Assembly (NCBI GenBank): GCA_963752595.1
Contig: CAVVYZ010000009.1
Span: 128,001 to 192,000, forward strand
Direction: 5' to 3'
Source: an uncultured delta proteobacterium
Lineage (GTDB): Bacteria > Desulfobacterota > Desulfomonilia > UBA1062
DNA: 64,000 nt
How positions within the stretch are numbered: position 1 is the stretch's first letter; every line of letters begins with the position of its first letter. The position numbers and the translations under genes are program-made. The notes beneath the pieces are model-generated. The model ran no database searches and was not told the DNA's origin. It saw nothing but the letters and a program-made list of their open reading frames with translations. Positions 21,785-35,605 of this stretch are shown here, one piece after another.

Positions 21785-22416
21785 CTACAGGAATGGGTTA
21801 TGCCTGCGTTCAAACCCGATAGTGGTTGCAGGCCCGTGACCCGTAAGAACCTTAACATCATCACCAAGAGGAATCAATTTGGTCTTTATTGAATTGATAA
21901 GGGTATGGTAATCGCCCCCGGGAAGATCCGTCCTTCCTATGGAGCCTGAAAACAGGGTGTCTCCGGCGAAGCAGTATTTTCCATCCGCTGTAACGAGTGA
22001 AATCCCCCCCGGCGAATGTCCCGGTGTCTCGATGACCGTGAGCATAAGTTTTCCAAACACAACCTGATCCCCTTCGGCGAGGAACCGGTCGGGTTCAGGT
22101 GGAGTGGCTAATGCTGATCCCGAAAAGCCTGCCCATTTTCGATGCGGCTTTCAGAATCAGGAAGCTCTGCCTCGTGGAGCATAAGATCCGACGAGAAGGC
22201 ATCCTTGATGTCTTTCAATGCGCCGATGTGGTCGACATGGGCATGGGTGTTCACCGCAGCAACAACGTTCCAACACCCATCTTCTCCACCTCCTGCACGA
22301 TTTTTTTCCCTTCGCCCCCGGGATCGATAACGATTGCCATCCATGGTGGATTCATCAGCAACGATAAAACAGTTGGTCATGAACTCAGTGACCACAATCG
22401 TATTCAATAACATCAT
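21785..22416 (-). CDS. MBL-fold metallo-hydrolase (glyoxalase II-like), frameshifted
   Basis: THAHVDHIG, TPGHSPG, GDTLFSGSIGRTDLPGG, GHGPATT. Confidence 0.9.
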
Positions 22417-22648
22417 GCCCCCCTGATCACTTCGAGGAAGAGTTCACCCTCAAGATGATCCTCAACAATTTCTTAGAGAACAGAATAATATACAGAAGAG
22501 GTTATTGGTCAACTGAGACCATCGCTTCTTACCGGTTCAGTCAGATTGATTTATCAGGAAACATTTTTGGTGACGTAAAATTGGAAGGATCATAATATTG
22601 TGGGCAGATAAAGTTTTAATCGCAAGATTTCCGATGAACAGTTCTGAG

Positions 22649-24024
22649 ATGGCACATATACTCATAGTCGAAGACGACATAAATCTGGGTCAGGTCCTTT
22701 TTCAGGAGCTGAAGAAACATAACCATGACGTGGAGCTCGTAGAAAACGGAGAGGCTGCACTCGCGCGGGTCAACAAATACATATACGACCTCATGCTTAC
22801 CGACCTGAAATTGCCGGGCATGGACGGCATTGAACTGCTCAAGAAGGTAAAAACTACCAATCCCAGTCAACCATTGTGATCGTCATGACCGGTTATGCTT
22901 CGGTGGATACCGCTGTGGTGGCTATGAAGAACGGGGCACAGGACTTCATCCAGAAACCTTTCGGCCTGCAGGAAATCACCCAGAAGATAGATGACTCCCT
23001 TGCCATCAAACGGATGAAGAACGAGATCGACTATCTCCGCCATGCCCAGGAAGATATCATTTACCGCACTACGGACATCATCGGGGAGAGCCCTTCGCTG
23101 AGAAAGGTGCTCAAGATGGTGGAGAAAGTGGCAAAGGCTGACTCCACCGTGCTCATAACCGGTGAGACCGGTGTAGGCAAAGGACTCGTAGCCGGGGCGA
23201 TCCATCACAACTCCAACCGGGGCAATAATAATTTTGTTCAGGTCAACTGCGCCGCGTTGCCCCATAACATCCTGGAAAGCGAGCTTTTCGGACATGAAAA
23301 GGGGCCTTTACCGGGGCAATAAAAACGAGAACCGGCAGGTTTGAGCAGGCCAACATGGGCACTATCTTCCTCGATGAGATCGGGGACATGGATATCGCCC
23401 TCCAGTCGAAAATATTGCGGGTCCTTGAAGAACGCGAGTTCGAAAGAGTCGGGGGAGAGAAGACCATCAAGGTTGATGTACGGGTCGTCGCTGCTACCAA
23501 TCAGGATATTCACACCCTGGTTCAGCAGGGTAAATTCCGAGAAGACCTTTATTACCGGATCAACGTGGTCAACATCGATATCCCACCTATCCGGCAGCGA
23601 AAGGAAGATATAGAGCCCCTTGTCCGCTATTTCATAAGGAAATATTCTATCGAATTCAAAAAACCGGATATGGATATCGACCCCTATGCCCTTGAATGTC
23701 TGATCGATTATGACTGGCCTGGAAACGTCCGCGAAATCCGCAACTGCATCGAACGCGCAGTCCTTCTGACCGAAGGGAACATCATCCGACATGCAGGATA
23801 TTTCCATCCATACAGGAGCCCAGGGCGGAAACCGGCACGAAGAGAATACATGCGTCTCTCATCGCTAGCCGTGAACTGAAAAAGAGAGTATCCTCGATGC
23901 CCTGAGAAAGAACGATTGGATACAGAAGGACGCTGCAGATACCTTAGGGATCAGCAAACGGGTAATCCACTATAAGATCAAGAAGTACGGTATCACCCAC
24001 CCCAGATGGATTAAAAACCGATAA
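22649..24024 (+). CDS. Sigma-54-dependent response regulator (NtrC/AtoC-like), frameshifted
   Basis: Receiver (VEDD, TDLKLPGMDG), GETGVGK, ESELFGHEKG(AFTGA), FLDEIG, FREDLYYRIN, WPGNVRE, Fis-type HTH ending GITHPRWIKNR. Confidence 0.92.
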
Positions 24025-25867
24025 TATCAACGAACAGAGACGTTACATCAGGATCCAGTGATTTTCCGGCCATGGAACACAACTCTCTCAATGCCTGCTC
24101 GTGGCTCAGCTGAAAACGGTACAGCCTCGGGGTCGTTATGGCGTTGAAGGTATCGACGACCCGCATCGCCCTTGCACTGATGGGGATATCATCACCTTTG
24201 AGCCCCCTGGGATATCCGCTCCCGTCGACGTTTTCATGGTGATACATGAGGATCTCTTCGTTAAGATCGAGTACCTTGACATCCTTGAGCATCCTTGTCC
24301 CTATGAAGGTGTGGGAATTGATTTTGTTCTGGTCAAAGGGTGTGATTTCACCCTTGGTGAAGATGGATGACGGAATCCCCAGATAGCCGATATTTGCAGC
24401 CAGGGCCGAATTTGCCCACTGTGCCGCCTGGGTCTCCCCCTTGCCCATTTCCTTTGCCAGGGTAAACATCTGGTCGGCGACCTTGATGGAATAGCCCATG
24501 GGATACCCTGCTCTGAGATCGCTCAAGATCGATGTCGTCGTGAGAATGCCCAGGTACCAGTTGCGGATATCCGGATCAAAGCCCAAGGCAACTGCCCATG
24601 CAGGCGTGATATAGGTGATAACCCATTCATAAATGTCGTCGGAAAGGCCTTCATGAACGAGATAGCCGAGATCGTTTCCCTGCCAGCTCACCAGGGCTCC
24701 GGGCGGTTCGTACCGAATGGAAATATCATCTGCCTGGCACTGGATCCGAAGCAGATCCAGCAGCTCGTTGAGGGTTTCGATATGAGGTCCGGAGCAGAGG
24801 ATCTTTTTCATTCTCAGTTCCAGAGAGAGATTGGTCTGCTTCAAAGCCCCTGTCTGGGAATACCGCGCCATGTGGATGCCTTTTTTCTTTGCATGTGACA
24901 GGGCCTGATGCGCGATGTTGATGAGCCCTTTCGCATCCTGGGCTTCATCCGGCAAGGTCGCTATCCCTATGGTCATGTTATTTGCAAGGTCTGCGCCGAG
25001 ATTCAATGTTGCATTGTGCAGGGCTGTTATCGCATCCTGAGGGGAGCAGCCGGGGAGGATCACGAAAAAACTCAACTCCTCATAGCGGATCACCTTGTCA
25101 TAGCGCCTGAGGCCGTCCTGTATTCTTTTCGCCAATGTCTTTAGTGTCCTCACGCCTTCGGGGATATGCTGATAGAGCCCGAACTTGTCCCTGTCCCCTA
25201 TTTCAATGATTGCAACGCTTGTGGGAAACGACAGGCGCTTGGAAAGCTCCTCATACTGGTGAAGGACATCCAGGATTACATGCCTCTGGGGAATATCCAT
25301 ACGCAGATCCAGAGCTTCATCATAATCCGGTGCCGGGCTGATAACCTTCTGGAGGATATTTTCGGAGCCGAGGAGCAGATGCTTTATCAGAATGATATCG
25401 TTGATATCGAAGCATTGCCCCGTCTTCCGGTAGAGTTCGAGACACCCGATAATCTTGGTATCCCTGTATATCGGCAACGCGATCATGGAATGGAACATGA
25501 TCGGCAGCTCATTGTTCTCGAGCCCTGTCTCGCTTACATCCGTGATCAGGATCGGCTTTGCCTTGTCCCTGATAACGGAAGTGAAGACATTGCCCTTCTC
25601 TATCTTCTCGGGTATCTCCCCTGCAATCCTCTGCAGAACCATGCATCCTGCGGTGACCAGACATATACGAGGGCCATGTCGAAGGACGTAATGTGCTCTA
25701 CGAAATTGAGAAAAAGATCGGATAACTTCTCTACGCGGACATCCACCTCCGAGAGCAGGGATACCTGGAAGAGTAGCGGGATAGACCCGAGCATTCTGCT
25801 TAATGAAGTCAGGGGTAAGCTCCAGGGTCTGATCAATAACACAATTAGTCAATCTATCAATGCACAT
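24011..25867 (-). CDS. GAF + degenerate GGDEF + degenerate HD-GYP protein
   Basis: GAF (HSMIALPIY), RRYDKVIRYEELSF, HHENVDGSGYPRGLKG; two apparently compensating frameshifts near the 5' end. Confidence 0.82.
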   Translation of the reverse strand: MCIDRLTNCVIDQTLELTPDFIKQNARVYPATLPGIPALGGGCPRREVIRSFSQFRRAHYVLRHGPRICLVTAGCMVLQRIAGEIPEKIEKGNVFTSVIRDKAKPILITDVSETGLENNELPIMFHSMIALPIYRDTKIIGCLELYRKTGQCFDINDIILIKHLLLGSENILQKVISPAPDYDEALDLRMDIPQRHVILDVLHQYEELSKRLSFPTSVAIIEIGDRDKFGLYQHIPEGVRTLKTLAKRIQDGLRRYDKVIRYEELSFFVILPGCSPQDAITALHNATLNLGADLANNMTIGIATLPDEAQDAKGLINIAHQALSHAKKKGIHMARYSQTGALKQTNLSLELRMKKILCSGPHIETLNELLDLLRIQCQADDISIRYEPPGALVSWQGNDLGYLVHEGLSDDIYEWVITYITPAWAVALGFDPDIRNWYLGILTTTSILSDLRAGYPMGYSIKVADQMFTLAKEMGKGETQAAQWANSALAANIGYLGIPSSIFTKGEITPFDQNKINSHTFIGTRMLKDVKVLDLNEEILMYHHENVDGSGYPRGLKGDDIPISARAMRVVDTFNAITTPRLYRFQLSHEQALRELCSMAGKSLDPDVTSLFVDIIGF

Positions 25868-25912
25868 GATGCTACTCGAGCACCTCCGTTGTAGAATCTT
25901 CAACAGATGAGG

Positions 25913-26044
25913 TCAGATCACCCTTTTATATTGCATGCCATTCCAATAGGCTTCGTATTCCCTGCATGCCCTCTTCAGACCGGAGAGCCCTCGAATCCCA
26001 AGCCTTTCAAGCTGTTCAAGAATCTCTCTGCGAGTAAGCCTCAT
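25913..26044 (-). CDS. Small hypothetical protein (43 aa)
   Basis: GAGG RBS then MRLTRREILEQLERLGIRGLSGLKRACREYEAYW; directly upstream of the GAF-GGDEF-HD-GYP gene. Confidence 0.55.
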   Translation of the reverse strand: MRLTRREILEQLERLGIRGLSGLKRACREYEAYWNGMQYKRVI

Positions 26045-26297
26045 CACTATCCTCACCACTGTAGTCTTGTACTCCAAAGTGTGCAAACATGGTGCCATAG
26101 ACAATCACCTATGAAATGCAATACTATTACATAGACGTTATAAAATCATATCCTGAATATTATCATGGGCATTTTTAGGAAAAAAAGAACTTTTGTTACT
26201 CTTTATAAGAAAGAAATTACATACTGTTTCTGGGCATATTCAAAGAAATTTACTCGCATGAATCATGCCTCATTTTGAGTCAATTTCCAGCGCTTGA

Positions 26298-27841
26298 TCA
26301 CCGGAGAGAAAACCTCATACCCATAATCCAGAGCATGGCCGAAATATAATGCCGCCGCCGAGTGGCGATGGAGCTGAACAGCATGGAAACGCTCAGACTG
26401 ACAATCCGCCCGCCCAGAACTTCATATGCAGAAAACAGCAGAAGGCCGGCACCCATGACCAGGGAAGCACCGAGCATTTGCACTATCTTGACCCAGATCT
26501 CCCGGGGCAGCGAATCCCCTCCCGGGAATGATCCGGTACATGATGATCATCTGAACCGCCACCGAGATGCTGCTTGCCAGTGCGATGCCGCCGAATGCCC
26601 CATGAACGGCATGAGGGCTACGCTGAAGAGCGCATTGATGACAAGGCTGATCCAGGCCGTCTTCACCACCGCCTTGGGCTGCTGCATGGCATACAGGGTC
26701 TGGGTGAGTATCCTCGAACAGCCCACAGCGCATCAGACCCACGGCATACATCTGGAGGGCAAAGGCCGTGGCCAGAACATCTCCATCCCAAAAGCCCCTC
26801 GCATGAAGAGGACTGCGAAGATCGGCTCTGCAAGGACCAGCATCCCGATGGTGGCAGGGATGGTGAAGATCAGCACCGCGATCATGGAATCCCCGGTGAG
26901 CGCTGACAGCCTTTCATGATCCGATCGTGCATATGCGGTGCTCATGGCCGGAAGCATCACATTGCTCACGGAAAAGGCGAACAGTCCCAAGGGAAGCTCC
27001 AGGATGCGGCTCGCAGTAGTAGAGATACGAAACGCTTCCGGTGGTAAGGAGCGATGCGAGCAGGGTCCCGATGAACACATTCAGCTGGTAGACCGAGGCG
27101 CCGATAGCGGCAACGCCCATGAGCTTCAGGACCTGCTTGAGCCGGGGATGGTAGAAGTCTGCCGTAAACCGCAGAGGGACCTTCATGATCTTGATAGGGG
27201 ATCATCTGCAGGAGGATCTGGGCGATACCCCCCAGGATCACGCCCCAGGCAAAGGCATCCTCCGGCTGTCTGAAAACCGGGGAACAGCGACATAGCCTAC
27301 ACGGGAACGCCGATCATGAAGATATTGAGGAGAATCGGGCGCAGCCTGCAGGCGCGGTGAAATGCCCCAGTGAATTGAGGACCCCCATGAGGAGTGCCGC
27401 GATCCCGATCAGCAGGATGAAGGGGAACATGATGCGGGTGAGATGAACCGCGATATCAAAGGCTATCCTGTCTTTCAGAAAACCCGGCGCCATGGCGGCC
27501 ACCATGGCCGGAGAGAGGATCTCGCCGATAATGACCACGGCGATCAGGGCATAGAACATGAAGGTGAAGATATCCCGGGTGAGCTCGAAGGCCTTTTCCA
27601 GATGCCGTCCTTTTCCCTTGACTTCCGTAAAGACCGGGATAAAGGCAACGCTGATGGCGCCTTCCGCCATGAACCTGCGCAGGAGATTGGGAATCCTGAA
27701 GGCAACGATAAACGCATCCGCTACAGGATGCCGGCGCCCAGGATCCAGGCCATGACCATGTCCCGGACAAAACCCAGGATACGGCTGATGCCGGTAAGCC
27801 CTCCGACAGCGGCGATATTCTCTGAACGCGCTTTTCTTCAT
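26298..27841 (-). CDS. murJ: Lipid II flippase MurJ, split by many frameshifts
   Basis: SRILGFVRD, ADAFIVAFRIPNLLRRFMAEGA, RILELPLGLF, FMRGAF, GGIALASSIS in alternating frames. Confidence 0.9.
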
Positions 27842-27871
27842 CCTTTAGGGCCACACGGAGGCGGCTCACTT

Positions 27872-28583
27872 TCACGATATATTTCTTATTTTGCCCTTAC
27901 CTCGGCACGAACATGGATGGTTTTTTTCGGGAGATAGGAAAGATCCGTTTCCAGATTCACATTCCCGCCGACAAAACCCATCCGATTGCCCAGGAGAAAA
28001 CTTGATATCGTGATTTTCCTGGACTGTCCCGGCTTCAGGTAAAAGGATCAGCGGCACAGCGAAGAGCTCAGGCGGCGTTGCCTCGATCTTGGTTATTTTT
28101 AAGGGTTTCTTGCTCACGTTTTCTACGATTACTCGCGGCTTTCGCTGTCTGGCCCTGGAGGATCTACCGAAATTCATCAGCCTGGGAGATACTTTCAGTG
28201 TCTCGAAGACCGGGCCTTCATGGTAAGGACGATTAGATCCTCCTTCGGATCGTTTGTTTCGATCTTTATCTCTTTAAAGAGGTCTGCCGTGTATGCATAG
28301 GTGGACATCTTCACGATGATCTTCCTCGCTTCGCCGGGTGCAACGGTCTGCCCGCCCGGGGCAGATATCTCGACACCTCAACACGGCCTCACTTTGAAGG
28401 TAAGGGGCTCATCACCGAATTCTTCAGGTGGAACACATTGGATATTTCTTTTCCCTGAGGGACTTCTCCCGCATCGTATGCGGTATTCTGGATAAACGCC
28501 TCGGGTGCGCAATGAGAAACCTGGGGGAATAAGAGGAACAGCAGAAGAATCAATCCCCCACCCAATCCGGATAATCTCTTCAT
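27872..28583 (-). CDS. Secreted DUF1573 (Ig-like) domain protein, probable selenoprotein, with indels
   Basis: GGAGG RBS, signal peptide, YDAGEVPQG, FHLKNS(G)DEPLTFKVRPC-UGA-GVEISAPGGQTVAPGEARKIIVKMST...KEIKIETNDP; 3' end approximate. Confidence 0.75.
28337..28377 (-). promoter_or_regulatory. Candidate bacterial SECIS element
   Basis: Immediately 3' of UGA (28378-28380): GGUG-N8-UCUGCCC-CGGGC-GGGCAGA-N6-CACC; 7-bp upper stem starts 12 nt after UGA, G at loop position 2. Confidence 0.65.
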
Positions 28584-28698
28584 TGTCTCACCTCCGTAGC
28601 TCGAGCTATCACAATTCCAAACACGTTTCCAGACGTATTTGGAGGGCGGATCGCTTCCTGCTGTTGACTTTTCCCTGCCCACAGAATAGATCGTTACT

Positions 28699-29127
28699 AT
28701 GCGCGGTAAATTGGAACAACCGAGAGGGCTCATCGAACTGATCTCCGTAGAAGTGGAACGCATCGACAGCGAGTATGGAGAGTTCTGGCTCAGCTATGAA
28801 TACAGCTGCCCTGCAGGGCAATACAAATCCGCAATGGTACTGCCGATATTCAACTCAAAGGAGATGACGAACCAGTTCTTCAAGGAATTCATGAACGAGG
28901 CACGGCATCTCTCCGAGATGGAAAGCAACGAGGTATGCGCCGTGGGATTCAATGTTGCAAACAAGATCAACAGCATGCTCCCCATCAAAAATCTCTGCCA
29001 GCGGGTGATAGAAGTGCTCCAGTCGCCCGAGCCTCTCAACGAGAACCGGGAATACATCGACCTGTGCTCCTCGGGATTTCATTTCAAGGAAGCGGGAAAA
29101 AGCCTCTCCGTCCATGGGGTTCGATGA
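28699..29127 (+). CDS. Hypothetical protein (possibly the N-terminal part of the next gene)
   Basis: 142-aa ORF with protein-like composition overlapping the next ORF by 14 nt. Confidence 0.6.
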   Translation: MRGKLEQPRGLIELISVEVERIDSEYGEFWLSYEYSCPAGQYKSAMVLPIFNSKEMTNQFFKEFMNEARHLSEMESNEVCAVGFNVANKINSMLPIKNLCQRVIEVLQSPEPLNENREYIDLCSSGFHFKEAGKSLSVHGVR

Positions 29128-29839
29128 GCGTTTCAAGACTTTCATGAACCGGGCCCGGGACAAGATGGAACAGGGATACTACACCATCGCTGCGGACGAT
29201 CTGGAAAAGGCGAATATCCTTTGCTCCACATCCCCGCTGATTTATAAGCTCATCGGCATCTGCCACCGGGAACTCGGCCACCTCGACCTTGCACTCGAGA
29301 TGTTCTCCAAGGCCCTTGACTCCGGCGACAAGGAAAAGGATACCTATCTCTATCTTGCGGAAATCAACTTTTTCCTGAACAATATGGAGGAGGCCCAGCG
29401 TTTCCTCGAAATGATGCTCAAGGAATATCCCGATGACATCCGGGCCCTGGTGGAGTTGGCAAACATCAGGTATCAGATGGATCAGGAGTACACCGATATC
29501 CTTGACCGCGCCTTTTCCCTCGACAGGGAAGGAACACAGAAGAGCATCCTCCAGACGTTCGTTTTCAAAAAGGTCGGGTACACGAAGCACAAGAAAACCT
29601 CCATCGAGAAGGCGGCCCTTCTCCTCCAGATTCCGGAACAGACGATACGTCTGCTTGCATCGAGTAATCGCGTCCCGGCACGGACTTTTCCCGAGAACGA
29701 TGAAATGATCCTCGATGAACATGAGCTCAAGTCATGGGCTTTCGTATACAGGAGATATTACTTGCTTGAAGATGAAATCCAGAGAGTTTCAGCTAACCCT
29801 GCAGCAAATAAAAATCAGGGCATGGCTGTTCTGCCCTGA
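29114..29839 (+). CDS. TPR protein with C-terminal excisionase-like (HTH_17) domain
   Basis: TPR helices (IYKLIGICHRELG, YLYLAEINF); SIEKAALLLQIPEQTIRLLASSNRVPA...LDEHELKSW. Confidence 0.7.
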   Translation: MGFDERFKTFMNRARDKMEQGYYTIAADDLEKANILCSTSPLIYKLIGICHRELGHLDLALEMFSKALDSGDKEKDTYLYLAEINFFLNNMEEAQRFLEMMLKEYPDDIRALVELANIRYQMDQEYTDILDRAFSLDREGTQKSILQTFVFKKVGYTKHKKTSIEKAALLLQIPEQTIRLLASSNRVPARTFPENDEMILDEHELKSWAFVYRRYYLLEDEIQRVSANPAANKNQGMAVLP

Positions 29840-31221: not shown

Positions 31222-32033
31222 CCGCGTCTGCCGTGGTTCTGTCCTATATCCTTTCGAGCATCGGGTTCATCGGATATCTCTTCTGGAGGAGGCCGCTCGT
31301 GGTGATCATTTCCCGTATCCTGTTCGGGATCAGCGTGGCTCTGCACTTCTTCCTGCTCATCATGCTGGCCGGGCAGGCCGGGCAGCTTCCCATTCTCTCT
31401 CCTGCCCAGGCGGCAAATATGATGATCTTCCTCTCTTCACTGGTCTTCATCTTCTTTGTGTATAAACGATCCACCGCTGTTCTGGGCGCCTTCTTCGTGC
31501 CTGTCGCAAGCTTCTGTTTAAGCCTGATTGCGCCTTCTCTCCAGACAGGACATGGAACCTCTTTTGCATTTTCCCGGATCTGGTATCCCCTGCATACCCT
31601 GACCGTCATCAGCGGAGAGGCATTGTTTGCCGTGGCATTTGTCGTATCCGTGGTCTACCTGGTCCATGATTCCGTCATCCGGAAGGGAAAGATCCATACA
31701 GCAGTCTCGAGCTTGCCTCCCTTGAGAATGCTGGATAAGATCCTCACCGTGTGTTTGAGCACCGGGTTCGTAGCCATAACCGCCGGGATGATGTTCGGCG
31801 CTCTCTGGGCGTCGAGCCTGGGAGTTGATTTCGCCCATTTAGCCGCCAAGGCCTCGGCCGGCGCAGCAACGTGGTTCGTCTTCGCATTCAGCATCCACCA
31901 GCGGTTCGCCATCGGATGGGCAGGCAGAAGGACGGCGATCATCACGATAGCGGGATTCATCCTCATGGTCCTCCTGTTCGTTATCCTGAACCTGATGTTC
32001 CCTGAGGTACACGGCATAAGGCTTACGACATGA
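31218..32033 (+). CDS. ccsA: Cytochrome c biogenesis CcsA-like membrane protein
   Basis: About 8 TMs, WYPLHT, LPPLRMLDK, GMMFGALWA, GWAGRR, terminal His; typical position before hemA. Confidence 0.82.
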   Translation: MTASAVVLSYILSSIGFIGYLFWRRPLVVIISRILFGISVALHFFLLIMLAGQAGQLPILSPAQAANMMIFLSSLVFIFFVYKRSTAVLGAFFVPVASFCLSLIAPSLQTGHGTSFAFSRIWYPLHTLTVISGEALFAVAFVVSVVYLVHDSVIRKGKIHTAVSSLPPLRMLDKILTVCLSTGFVAITAGMMFGALWASSLGVDFAHLAAKASAGAATWFVFAFSIHQRFAIGWAGRRTAIITIAGFILMVLLFVILNLMFPEVHGIRLTT

Positions 32034-33265
32034 ACCGCATCAACTGCCTCAGCATCAATTACCGTAATGCCCCTGTCGCGATAAGGGAAAAGATGCAACT
32101 CTCTCCTCGCAACCTCCTCGACCTCATGCAGAAGGATACGGAGATCTATGCACTCTCGACATGCAACCGGACCGAGCTCTATTGGACGGATATCGAGGAA
32201 CAGGTACTCCTCCGGCGCATGAGCGCCCTTTCCGGCATAGAAGAGGAAACGCTGAAAGGAGTTACTGAAATGCTCCGGGGCAAAGAGGCCTTACTGCATC
32301 TTTTCAAGGTTTCTTCCGGGCTCGATTCCCTGGTCATCGGAGAGACGCAGATCCTGGGCCAGGTCAAAGAGGCATACCGCGAGGCCCTCGAAGCGAAAAC
32401 AACCTCGATTTTCCTCAACAAGGCCCTTCACCGCGCCTTCCGCACTGCCAAACGGGTGCGCACCGAGACGGATATCGGCAAGTATCCGGTCTCTGTTGCA
32501 TCGGAAGCAGTGGAGCTTGCCTGCCATATCTTCGGCGACATCCTGGACAGCACGGTCCTGGTCATCGGTGCAGGCGACATGGCAAGCATTGCAGCACAGC
32601 GTCTCAAGGAACGGGGCGCCAGGAACCTGCTCATCATGAACAGGACCCACAGCACCGCATGCCGGCTGGCTCAGGAACTGGAAGGTACCCCCAGGCCGTT
32701 CGAAGCACTCCAGGAGGAGCTTGGCCGCTGCGATATCGTGATCACCTCCACAGGCTCTCCCGTTCCGATCATCAGCAAGCCCATGATGGACGTGGTCATG
32801 AAGCAGCGTCGCAACAGCCCGCTCATCATCATCGACATCGCGGTACCGAGAGATGTGGACCCCGCGGTAGGGAAATGCTATAATTGTTATCTTTATGACA
32901 TCGATGCGCTCAAAACCATTGTGGACAGGCACCTTACCAACCGTCAACAGCAGGCGGACAAGGCACTCTCGATCATCGCCGCCGAGGTCGAGCTTTTCGA
33001 AAAATGGGTCCACTCACTCAATGCACAGGACACGATCAGAGACCTGTTCAGCCTCATGGATGCGTACGTCGATGATGAGATCCGGCAAAGCGGCCTCGAG
33101 AGTGAGGACGCAGCCATGCTGGAACAGAAACTGCGGACATCCCTGAAGCGGCTTGTCCACCGGGTGGTGAGCTTCCTGAAGGAGCACCCGTCACTCGCCA
33201 ATATAGAACATACACGGAGGATTTTCCAGCTCGATGCGAATTATCAGGATCGGCACAAGGGGTAG
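32030..33265 (+). CDS. hemA: Glutamyl-tRNA reductase
   Basis: LSTCNRTE, GLDSLVIGETQILGQVK, VIGAGDM, DIAVPRD. Confidence 0.97.
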   Translation: MNRINCLSINYRNAPVAIREKMQLSPRNLLDLMQKDTEIYALSTCNRTELYWTDIEEQVLLRRMSALSGIEEETLKGVTEMLRGKEALLHLFKVSSGLDSLVIGETQILGQVKEAYREALEAKTTSIFLNKALHRAFRTAKRVRTETDIGKYPVSVASEAVELACHIFGDILDSTVLVIGAGDMASIAAQRLKERGARNLLIMNRTHSTACRLAQELEGTPRPFEALQEELGRCDIVITSTGSPVPIISKPMMDVVMKQRRNSPLIIIDIAVPRDVDPAVGKCYNCYLYDIDALKTIVDRHLTNRQQQADKALSIIAAEVELFEKWVHSLNAQDTIRDLFSLMDAYVDDEIRQSGLESEDAAMLEQKLRTSLKRLVHRVVSFLKEHPSLANIEHTRRIFQLDANYQDRHKG

Positions 33266-34127
33266 CAGGCTCGCTCTCCGTCAGACTGAAATGGTTCGGG
33301 AGGCCTTATCGCTCGTTGCCCCTGAAATCAAGACGGACGTATGCGTCGTGAAGACGACCGGAGACATCCTCTCGGAAGCGCCGCTCGATGCTATCGGCGG
33401 CAAGGGGGTCTTCGTCAAGGAGATCGAGCGGGTCCTTATCGCTGAAGAGATAGACTGCGCCGTGCACAGCCTCAAGGACATGCAGGCCGTGCTGCCCGAA
33501 GGGCTTAGCGTCAGCGCATACCTGAAACGGGAAGATCCCAGGGACATGCTCTTTTCGAAAAACGGCTTTACCCTGAAAACGCTGCCTTCGGGTTCGAGGG
33601 TCGGCACTTCGAGCATGCGCAGGCGATGCCAGCTCAAAATCCTGCGGCCGGACCTGGAAATAACGGACATACGGGGGAATGTACCGACCCGCCTCGGAAA
33701 GATCGGCCACGGCGTCGATGCAGTGATCCTTGCAGCTGCCGGGGTAAAAAGGCTCGGCCTTGCAGAGGGAACGGCCCTCGATATCGAAGACATGCTTCCT
33801 TCTCCCGGCCAGGGCATCATCGCCATAGAGAGCAGGGGTTCTGATGCCCGGCTCAATACCATATTGAAGAAGCTTGACCACATCCCCACGCGGGTGTGCG
33901 CCGAGACCGAGCGTTCGTTCCTTGCCGCCCTGGGCCAGGACTGCAGCCTTCCGGCAGGGGCTCATGCGACGTTCCACGACGACCTCATATTCATCACCGG
34001 CATACTCGGCTACCCCGATGAATCATCGATTGAAAAGATGCATATGGAAGGAGTCGATGCCTCCGTCGGATCCCGCCTGGGACTCGGCTTGAAAGCCAGG
34101 GTTCATCCGGAAGAAGGTCTCTCATGA
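33234..34127 (+). CDS. hemC: Hydroxymethylbilane synthase
   Basis: IGTRGSRLAL, GGKGVFVKE, AVHSLKD, GTSSMRR, IRGNV. Confidence 0.97.
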   Translation: MRIIRIGTRGSRLALRQTEMVREALSLVAPEIKTDVCVVKTTGDILSEAPLDAIGGKGVFVKEIERVLIAEEIDCAVHSLKDMQAVLPEGLSVSAYLKREDPRDMLFSKNGFTLKTLPSGSRVGTSSMRRRCQLKILRPDLEITDIRGNVPTRLGKIGHGVDAVILAAAGVKRLGLAEGTALDIEDMLPSPGQGIIAIESRGSDARLNTILKKLDHIPTRVCAETERSFLAALGQDCSLPAGAHATFHDDLIFITGILGYPDESSIEKMHMEGVDASVGSRLGLGLKARVHPEEGLS

Positions 34128-35605
34128 AGGTATACCTCATCGGCACAGGACCGGGCGACCCGGGGCTCATCACGCTCAAAGGATCGCGGATCATCCCCCT
34201 ATGCGATGCAGTCGTCTATGACGATCTCATTCCGCCGGAGATCCTGAGCCTGGCAAAGCCCGGGGCGCAAAAGATATATGTGGGCAAGAGGGCCGGGCGG
34301 GACTACATGAAGCAGCCTCAGATCAATGATCTCCTGCTCAGCCTTGCCGGGCAGGGTCTTACCATAGCACGCCTCAAGGGCGGAGATCCGTGCATCTTCG
34401 GACGGGGCGGGGAAGAGGCCCTTTTCTTACATGAAAACAACATCCCCTTCGAGATCATCCCCGGGATCACCTCGGCCATAGCCGGGCCGATCAGCGCGGG
34501 CATCCCGCCGACCCACCGTGGGATAGCGTCTTCGGTCAAATTCATCACGGCACACGAAGACCCGGACAAGAGCTCCGGCTTTCTCGACTGGTCTCTGCTG
34601 GCCAGAGACAGCGGGACTCTGGTGTTTCTCATGGGTGCTTCGCGGATCGGTCGGATCGCGGATAAGCTCATGGGTGAAGGGATGAGGCCGGACATGCCCT
34701 GCGCCCTTATACAGAATGCCACCACACCCATGCAGCGCCATATTGTCTCAACCCTCGCGGATGTGGGGGCCGAAGCGGAAAAATACGGAATCGGCTCTCC
34801 CTGCATCGTCGTGGTGGGAGCAGTCGCCGCCTTGAGCAAGGATCTCTACGTGGAGGCTGTGAAGCCCCTGCAGGGAAAATCCGTGCTGATAACCAGGCCT
34901 TCCCACCTGGCGATCGAGAGCGCTCCTTTGTTTACGGAAAACGGGGCAAAGGTCGTGCTCTATCCTTTGATAGAAATATCCCCGCTCCCATTCGATCTGC
35001 CGGATGTTGCAGCCTTTGACCTCTTCATCTTCACCTCCCAGAATGCAGTGCCTTTGTTTCTGGATAAACTTTTTGCAGCAGATCTTGATGTCCGGGCATT
35101 CTCGGGCAAGGAGATCTACTGCATCGGCCCCAAGACAAGGGAGGCTCTGCGCAGCTACGGAATCATCGCGGACGGCATGGCAGAAGAATACCGTGCCGAA
35201 GGGATCATAGAGATGCTGCGCGGAAAGGATCTCTCAGAAAAAAAGGTATGCCTGCCCAGGGCCAAAGGCGCGAGGACGTACCTGGTGGACGCCCTGAAGG
35301 AAAAAGGGGCGGTGGTAGAGGAAATCTTTGTCTACGAAACCACGCTCCCAAAGGATGCAAACAGGCAGGATTTCCTCGCTGCCCTTGCAGAAGCGGATAC
35401 CGCCGTCTTCACCAGCCCGTCGGGGTTCAGGCATGCCCTGATGCTCCTGGAAGACGACCCGGGACCCCTGAAGGATAAAAAACTCGTTGCCATCGGCCCG
35501 GTGACCGCCTCGGCAATGGAAAAGGCAGGCTTTCCTGCCCACATTACGGCCGCGGAATACACCGATGCCGGGATTATCGAAGCAATGAAAGGAGATCCGT
35601 CATGA
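34124..35605 (+). CDS. cobA: Uroporphyrinogen-III C-methyltransferase / uroporphyrinogen-III synthase fusion (CobA-HemD)
   Basis: GTGPGDPGLIT, RLKGGDPCIFGRGGEE; HemD half VLITRP, FTSQNAV, FTSPS, AIGPVT. Confidence 0.95.
   Translation: MKVYLIGTGPGDPGLITLKGSRIIPLCDAVVYDDLIPPEILSLAKPGAQKIYVGKRAGRDYMKQPQINDLLLSLAGQGLTIARLKGGDPCIFGRGGEEALFLHENNIPFEIIPGITSAIAGPISAGIPPTHRGIASSVKFITAHEDPDKSSGFLDWSLLARDSGTLVFLMGASRIGRIADKLMGEGMRPDMPCALIQNATTPMQRHIVSTLADVGAEAEKYGIGSPCIVVVGAVAALSKDLYVEAVKPLQGKSVLITRPSHLAIESAPLFTENGAKVVLYPLIEISPLPFDLPDVAAFDLFIFTSQNAVPLFLDKLFAADLDVRAFSGKEIYCIGPKTREALRSYGIIADGMAEEYRAEGIIEMLRGKDLSEKKVCLPRAKGARTYLVDALKEKGAVVEEIFVYETTLPKDANRQDFLAALAEADTAVFTSPSGFRHALMLLEDDPGPLKDKKLVAIGPVTASAMEKAGFPAHITAAEYTDAGIIEAMKGDPS

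Follow-up and report, generated by a model that had tools for sequence, protein, structure and literature searches.

The stretch of DNA considered here (the window) comprises 64,000 nucleotides of an uncultured delta proteobacterium (contig CAVVYZ010000009.1, positions 128,001 to 192,000 of the forward strand; assembly GCA_963752595.1, 84% complete and called G000 below), and it carries, directly upstream of the lipid II flippase gene murJ, a minus-strand gene for a predicted exported DUF1573 protein whose reading frame contains a TGA codon at 28378-28380. This TGA is very probably read as selenocysteine (Sec), through SelB and a selenocysteine insertion sequence (SECIS), as the initial annotation of the window had proposed: the codon is conserved among relatives, the hairpin behind it is under selection, selA, selB and selD are present in the genome itself, and a cysteine codon takes its place in a relative (G096) that lacks the machinery. 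The recoding itself is ordinary and not of a new kind; what is new is the switched motif, the family-wide branch of genes linked to murJ, and the natural series of motifs that this branch offers.

The gene, placed by tblastn and blastn against the intact orthologue of the closest relative (G004), runs from the ATG at 28583-28581 to the TAA at 27888-27886 (27886..28583, minus strand) and encodes 232 residues; the earlier feature limit of 27872 lies past this stop. The observation that the frame stays open through the TGA stands: on the minus strand the Cys codon TGT (28381..28383, read from 28383 to 28381) directly adjoins the TGA, and the surrounding frame reads DEPLTFKVRPC*GVEISAPGG...KEIKIETNDP.

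The TGA codon in relatives

In a first search of 40 relatives, the gene fragment was found in all 11 genomes of the same genus and in 23 of the 24 of the same family, with one TGA per best match, and in the 24 relative genes that were read coding continues for 160-175 conserved codons past the TGA to a normal end. A profile built from 20 such proteins and run over all 52 family genomes matched 51 of them, and 50 (G000 included) have the gene with an in-frame TGA. The motif is Cys-TGA-Gly-Val/Ala in 48 of the 52 genomes, Thr-TGA only in two (G018, G095) and Cys-Cys in one (G096), with nothing in the remaining one (G017), while Ser-TGA occurs in two extra copies of G105. Across the 57 TGA genes that were aligned, the preceding residue is Cys in 54, Thr in two and Ser in one. 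The TGA column is an invariant Cys/Sec column in an alignment of 30 sequences (in which the C-x-C and C-x-x-C copies are placed ambiguously), and this bears out the earlier statement that the TGA takes the place of the first Cys in the C-G-C motif of DUF1573.

Searching metagenomes with the DNA pattern of Cys-TGA plus hairpin gave 116 matches, of which 82 strongly encode this protein and one is borderline, the remainder looking like chance. Among the loci read, no member of the branch lies outside this family. In 401 genomes sampled across the phylum, matches outside the family reach at most 165 bits, versus 210-335 bits for full-length family members, and all 25 outside-family loci that were read have U-G-C or C-G-C. 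A profile search of 1.84 billion representatives gave giant multi-Ig-repeat (immunoglobulin-like repeat) proteins for all of its best 150 matches.

That the TGA is a true stop, within a split gene, a pseudogene or an error-rich stretch of sequence, seems extremely unlikely, even though the quality of the window would invite such a reading. The window copy has about ten indel sites, and there are many in murJ. Relative to G004, which is 84% identical in DNA over 12 kb, those in the gene lie at ~28418, 28212, 28164, 28146, 28132, 28055, 28039, 28020, 28012 and 27976, and dozens more indels of one or two bases are spread across 22.2-29.1 kb (22200-29150), with none in 31400-34300. The initial annotation had required one missing base near 28415 to join the signal peptide to the rest; a missing base near 28416 is backed by a contig of sequencing run X1 and by G004, but with ten indel sites a single base is insufficient. 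Contigs of run X1 (independent, depth 2-3) are without four of the window indels (27622, 27726, 28416 and 28652), and these indels are most likely assembly errors. At the TGA, run X1 gives a single contig with a depth of 2.3 and one unlisted mismatch somewhere in 28366-28414, so that the codon itself is not settled by it; one DNA run, in which this genome has a small share, and no RNA run are listed as containing the genome. The same indel zone (22200-29150) breaks murJ, a sigma-54 regulator and other genes, and gene calls there need care.

A true stop might also seem to be suggested by the protein database (searched at lengths of 127-406), where 17 of 18 homologues are pieces of 127-168 residues. 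However, the three pieces that were viewed start either immediately behind the TGA or at a Met inside the protein, which is the outcome expected of gene callers; because these stop at the TGA, a gene that is nearly universal in the family is missing from protein databases. Against a stop stand, moreover, the TGA that 49 other genomes have at this column, the 82 metagenome matches that encode this protein, the position of the TGA inside one folded domain, and the Cys codon found where the Sec genes are lost.

Hairpin and selenocysteine machinery

The hairpin was described initially as a perfect 7-bp stem with the loop CGGGC, and it is found as such at 28347..28365 (minus strand, from 28365 to 28347), 12 nucleotides (nt) past the TGA, with a 5-nt loop that starts 20 nt past the TGA and has a G at its second position. 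The additional lower stem GGUG/CACC did not hold up: it folds in the window sequence alone and is missing from the consensus structure of 25 genes. The 7-bp stem itself is 88.2% paired in these 25 aligned genes, with changes on both sides at five of its seven pairs, while none of 500 shuffles pairs as well and slid registers reach 31-53%. All 57 genes have G as the third base of the stem-loop's Pro codon, and the stem-pairing Ala and Gly wobbles are fixed at 95% and 84%; in 37 other four-fold columns the commonest base makes up 30-77%. The four core pairs are intact in all 59 TGA genes versus 2 of 11 Cys-only members. Selection acts on the hairpin at the level of RNA, and stem conservation, compensatory changes and loop spacing agree with its reading as a SECIS. 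An Rfam scan of six loci gave no match to a SECIS or tRNA-Sec family.

Other genes of G000 have a comparable arrangement. At least five genes for formate dehydrogenase alpha subunits (fdhA) carry an in-frame TGA (C1:284284, C15:218842, C18:11450, C23:77394 and C9:296013), four of them with the same hairpin loop, and clustered on one contig (C20, near 15918, 18984, 20836 and 35399, plus strand) are at least four UGSC-type genes that likewise have an in-frame TGA and share nearly the same hairpin. In these genes and in selD, the hairpin loop starts 19-24 nt past the TGA. All of them come from a regular-expression hunt through G000 that is otherwise swamped by chance matches.

With respect to the machinery, the initial annotation had proposed a search for selA, selB, selC and selD, and the outcome is mixed: selA, selB and selD all score over their cut-offs in G000, with selD itself carrying an in-frame TGA, but selC was not found. 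The most telling case is G096, which is 98% complete and in which selA, selB, selC and selD were all not found, although surE (the gene that adjoins selC in genomes of the window's genus) is assembled. G096 alone has TGC-TGC (Cys-Cys) at the murJ locus, its gene branches as the sister of the Cys-TGA gene from the same genus (SH-aLRT, i.e. Shimodaira-Hasegawa-like approximate likelihood ratio test, 95 and 98 in two trees), and two of the four core pairs of its hairpin are broken. In other words, the TGA codon is Cys in the one near-complete relative without Sec machinery.

Several observations weigh against selenocysteine, or at least against the force of the evidence for it. The family genomes are kin, and the counts of conservation are not independent trials. 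The same holds for the hairpin statistics, yet there the contrast between TGA and Cys-only members falls inside one gene. Taken alone, the hairpin of the window is unexceptional and constitutes weak evidence of modest weight: its folding z-scores range from -0.31 to -2.13 over four windows, and a perfect 7-bp stem lies at a similar place after 632 of the 152,342 TGA triplets of the genome (0.41%). As for selC, it was found neither in the incomplete assembly of G000 (by Rfam, ARAGORN, blastn and nhmmer) nor in G004. Since surE is also missing from both, an unassembled region is the simplest reading of the missing selC, and selC was found in 10 of the 11 genomes of the same genus and in 43 of the 52 of the family. 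Finally, five relatives that are 96-99% complete (G021, G024, G102, G104 and G108) have the TGA gene and selC, but selA was not found in them with TIGR00474 and PF03841; four of these were re-tested, and those four carry selB and selD. In these five genomes the missing selA may reflect gaps in the assemblies, a Sec synthase that has diverged, or recoding of the TGA as Cys.

Two candidates for selC in G000 were rejected: the sole 'tRNA-SeC' call of ARAGORN covers 69 nt and lacks a tRNA fold, and a 20-nt blastn match at C2:97810 sits in unrelated sequence.

Cys recoding would mean that the TGA is read as cysteine by a selC*-type tRNA-Cys(UCA) together with SelB*, giving a Cys-Cys protein. Such a selC*/selB*/cysS* arrangement inserting Cys at UGA is described in the accessible part of PMC5389517, and in two relatives (G021 and G110) a 92-nt UCA tRNA (A1:U72, U73) lies directly upstream of a second selB, followed in G110 by a cysS copy. 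G021 is moreover one of the genomes without detectable selA, and no canonical selC was found in G000 or G004. For the window this reading is nonetheless very unlikely: G000 has a single selB over the cut-off, along with selA and the TGA-containing selD, nothing in it matches the selC*-type tRNAs from G021 and G110 (in a search limited by the incomplete assembly), the absence of surE along with selC points to an unassembled region, and selC is found in most of the family. The arrangement in G021 and G110 itself fits, as judged from its sequence, a selC*/selB*/cysS* system in a further lineage (UCA tRNA sites at L182:173-264 in G021:C179, and at L183:261-352, also L327, in G110:C135). In G110, a Cys-only (C-x-C) copy of the DUF1573 protein family follows the cysS copy and overlaps its end.

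The protein, its locus and its possible function

The intact G004 orthologue has, according to Pfam, DUF1573 at residues 34-124 and a HYDIN/ASH/PapD-like domain at 130-227. On the minus strand of the window these correspond, within approximate limits, to 28212..28484 for the DUF1573 (PF07610) Ig-like domain and to 27900..28195 for the second Ig-like domain (HYDIN/VesB/CFA65, ASH, PapD-like), which is further backed by the structural model and fold search and contains several frameshifts in the window copy. PF07610 scores 73.9 bits on the whole G004 protein versus a gathering cut-off of 26.1, and 18.5 bits on the broken window fragment alone. A cleavable signal peptide of 25 residues is predicted at 28509..28583 (minus strand) from the sequence, a hydropathy check and a helix at residues 2-18 of the G004 protein model, and a hydrophobic N-terminal stretch is found in 52 of 52 scoreable TGA genes (by hydropathy, not SignalP). 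The AlphaFold2 model of the G004 protein, for which Sec was replaced by Cys, has two all-beta domains (mean pLDDT, i.e. predicted local distance difference test, 92.3), and the motif lies in a modelled loop between strands 61-65 and 71-74. The predicted signal peptide and the two Ig-like domains, in relatives and in the G004 model, agree with the exported Ig-like protein that had been suggested; export through a cleavable signal peptide and exposure of the motif loop are both predicted, with moderate confidence. In 41 of 52 proteins the mature part is without any Cys beyond the motif.

These features would be compatible with the following course of events. SelB would recognise the hairpin and Sec would be inserted at the TGA, yielding an exported protein of ~232 residues with two Ig-like domains and Pro-Cys-Sec-Gly as its only thiol/selenol site. 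The Cys-Sec pair could then alternate between a selenolthiol form and a selenenylsulfide ring of eight members: Sec would attack a disulfide or an oxidant, the adjacent Cys would resolve the product, and a periplasmic thioredoxin-like protein would then re-reduce the pair. In this branch the partner Cys would have shifted from two residues after Sec (U-G-C) to one before it (C-U-G). A chemical precedent for the ring is Gly-Cys-Sec-Gly in thioredoxin reductase, as described in the available portion of PMC11508645. For this mechanism as a whole, i.e. recoding plus an envelope redox site that works through a reversible selenenylsulfide, we consider the case about evenly balanced.

The initial annotation had also spoken of an adjacent Cys-Sec redox pair. 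Such a pair is very probable, but its redox role is an interpretation and its Cys is not universal. A redox role is pointed to by the extra copies with two cysteines and by thioredoxin-like fusions: ten Cys-only extra copies nested in the branch all keep two cysteines, spaced C-x-C or C-x-x-C, and three of the 72 longer homologues have a DUF1573 domain of the classic C-G-C type fused to a thioredoxin-like domain with C-x-x-C. On the other side, these fusions are just three and of the classic C-G-C type, not of this branch, and the conserved locus holds no thioredoxin-like partner. Most CU motifs published for bacteria are linked to heavy metals, at least in the accessible text of 10.1101/2022.07.06.499078. 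In four genes of three relatives, furthermore, Thr or Ser replaces the Cys before the TGA, so that the partner Cys is not universal and a resolving Cys would be dispensable there; these four Sec genes without the Cys argue against a strict need for the ring.

The link to metals leads to the main alternative, a possible though less probable function for the same selenoprotein, in which Cys-Sec would bind or pass on a soft metal or metalloid (Hg, Cu or As) in the periplasm. P-C-U-G makes up four of the five residues of the HgcA motif PCUGP, Haft and Gwadz connect CU motifs with heavy-metal binding (in the part of 10.1101/2022.07.06.499078 that is accessible), Table 1 of PMC13188914 lists CU for SaoL, SaoB, SaoC, HgcA, MbdU, KCU-star and a CopZ-like protein, and the Sec-only forms would suit a role as ligand. 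A weak hint comes from an ArsP-type permease near two off-locus Cys-TGA copies (G121 and G120) and one classic U-G-C copy (G002). However, the core locus consists of murJ, haem synthesis and signalling genes, in which no metal transporter or metal-handling genes were seen, and no copper-protein family turned up among 87 of 179 neighbouring open reading frames of 20 off-locus copies (E 1e-14). HgcA is over the cut-off in only 18 of 52 family genomes versus 51 for this gene, and the hgcA of G000 carries no CU. That hgcA, a gene for mercury methylation (C9:17204-18193, plus strand), is itself over the cut-off and has Cys-Cys rather than Cys-TGA in its N-terminal extension. The distance between hgcA and a C-x-x-C copy of the DUF1573 protein family is ~2.6 kb in G097 and ~7 kb in G098.

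The position of the gene is remarkably constant: among the 50 relatives with a gene of the branch, 49 have one immediately upstream of murJ, the exception (G013) being a fragmented assembly. In the window murJ occupies approximately 26298..27841 on the minus strand, with many indels, as judged from fragments of open reading frames and from the Pfam MurJ match of the G096 orthologue. On the other side, a divergent TPR/HTH gene (28699..29839, plus strand; given for context only) starts a conserved run with a hydrolase, sirC, a ccsA-like gene, hemA and hemC. No match to a sigma-70 promoter was found near the gene. The fixed position before murJ suggests a role in the envelope but does not demonstrate it. 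Beyond murJ, a multidomain gene with GAF, GGDEF-like and HD-GYP domains (24011-25903, minus strand) is conserved in 15 of 17 sampled loci and faces a sigma-54 response regulator.

The tight linkage to murJ would also suit a selenoprotein that is mainly a structural or scaffolding Ig protein of the envelope, co-expressed with murJ and forming a lasting Se-S bond to a partner or another copy, with the adjacent Cys being optional. The nearest folds are ASH-type Ig repeats of structural proteins and the structure 2QSV, and the replacement of Cys by Thr or Ser in four genes would be in line with this. We regard it as unlikely, given that 54 of the 57 aligned genes retain the Cys and that every Cys-only copy has two cysteines; gene order beside murJ can moreover be inherited without a shared function, and all ten C-x-C and C-x-x-C copies sit elsewhere.

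Returning to the Cys-Sec redox site, the furthest-reaching form of the proposal is a tentative one, and rather doubtful: an undescribed core envelope selenoprotein of a whole anaerobic deltaproteobacterial family, in which an Ig loop holds a thioredoxin-reductase-like Cys-Sec centre outside the thioredoxin and flavoprotein folds and is tied to lipid II flipping through its position at murJ. If true, a single scaffold would present the series U-G-C, C-U, Sec alone, C-C, C-x-C and C-x-x-C, in which the partner Cys changed sides and the two residues moved further apart when selenium was given up, and this series would be a direct test of why adjacent pairs favour selenium. DUF1573 has, to our knowledge, no known function. 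With natural variants on a small, well-folded scaffold, both this function and the value of selenium in adjacent pairs would be easy to probe, and the intact Cys-Cys orthologue of G096 should be expressible without recoding.

Relation to known selenoproteins

DUF1573 selenoproteins were predicted as OS_HP2 in 2007 (PMC1976440, as far as accessible) and are listed with the motif UGC in the available parts of PMC9312934 and PMC13188914; in the accessible portion of PMC10434189 a DUF1573 gene appears merely in an expression table. The three OS_HP2 representatives seen in the supplements of PMC12013277 have ~240-260 residues, an N-terminal hydrophobic stretch and the motif G-U-G-C. The C-U form of DUF1573 was not found in the literature searched or in the BSepDB supplement (PMC13326102), with a coverage that is thin for subscription papers, and some members may be held by the BSepDB website and the seeds of NCBIfam NF041425. 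Within these limits the suggestion that the C-U-G-V form is uncharacterised stands, the published lists giving DUF1573 solely as U-G-C. The 2026 prokaryotic inventory (PMC13188914) gives a different Sec motif within one domain a subfamily of its own, at least in the text available, and by that rule the branch would be a new entry.

The branch resembles OS_HP2 (PF07610; NF041425) in its domain, Sec column, size and layout, in a SECIS directly 3' of the UGA, and in having a signal peptide and two Ig-like domains with Sec in the first, both being predictions from deltaproteobacterial DNA. It differs in its motif, which is P-C-U-G-V/A instead of x-U-G-C, i.e. the Cys after Sec is gone and there is one before Sec instead, and in its fixed place upstream of murJ. 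A Cys two residues past Sec occurs in none of the 57 aligned TGA genes. The 67 sequences of the branch separate from 65 classic C-G-C/U-G-C rows with an SH-aLRT of 99, or of 96 with the motif masked (both trees made by a quick method with SH-aLRT only, and the second without the long row L078). With Sec scored as Cys, the G004 orthologue scores 77 bits against NF041425 and 10 of 10 branch members score 47-83 bits, versus a cut-off of 100 bits that five of seven classic members pass. The branch gene therefore scores too low for the only curated model of its superfamily, and since it also lacks the U-G-C motif, its product is a DUF1573 protein that would work as other selenoproteins of this superfamily do but is not a member of OS_HP2 as defined. 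Classic U-G-C copies coexist with the branch gene in several of the same genomes. G000 has two more DUF1573 genes without TGA (L008 at C30:52690 and L009 at C19:5061), one with C-G-C (130 bits against NF041425) and the other with G-C-C-G. Two odd classic-type motifs occur outside the family. One is C-C-G-C in L139 (G453), a possible intermediate with Cys on either side, and the other is U-A-C in L078 (G045).

With regard to fold, the protein is like ASH/HYDIN/PapD-like Ig domains, with a Foldseek E of 3e-15 to the ASH repeats of the ciliary central pair, and like PDB 2QSV, a Porphyromonas gingivalis protein of unknown function (Foldseek E 6e-12; phmmer E 0.005). The identity to these is however 12-20%, none of them is a selenoprotein, and none explains the Cys loop. 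The bacterial CU-motif selenoproteins (HgcA with PCUGP, SaoL, SaoB, SaoC, MbdU, KCU-star and form 2 of the CopZ-like protein) share with the branch the adjacent Cys-Sec, the existence of Cys-Cys homologues and the truncation in databases at the UGA, and HgcA has P-C-U-G in common with it; no homology was shown, and the branch protein differs in its Ig-like fold and in a core locus without metal-handling genes. The mammalian thioredoxin reductase motif Gly-Cys-Sec-Gly likewise combines an adjacent Cys-Sec with a following Gly and has natural Cys-Cys counterparts (PMC11508645, in the part accessible), and in one relative the motif of the branch reads G-C-U-G. The branch protein, in contrast, has no flavin domain, carries its motif in an internal Ig loop instead of a flexible tail, is predicted to be periplasmic and has its SECIS inside the coding region, which makes the likeness to thioredoxin reductase a chemical analogy only.

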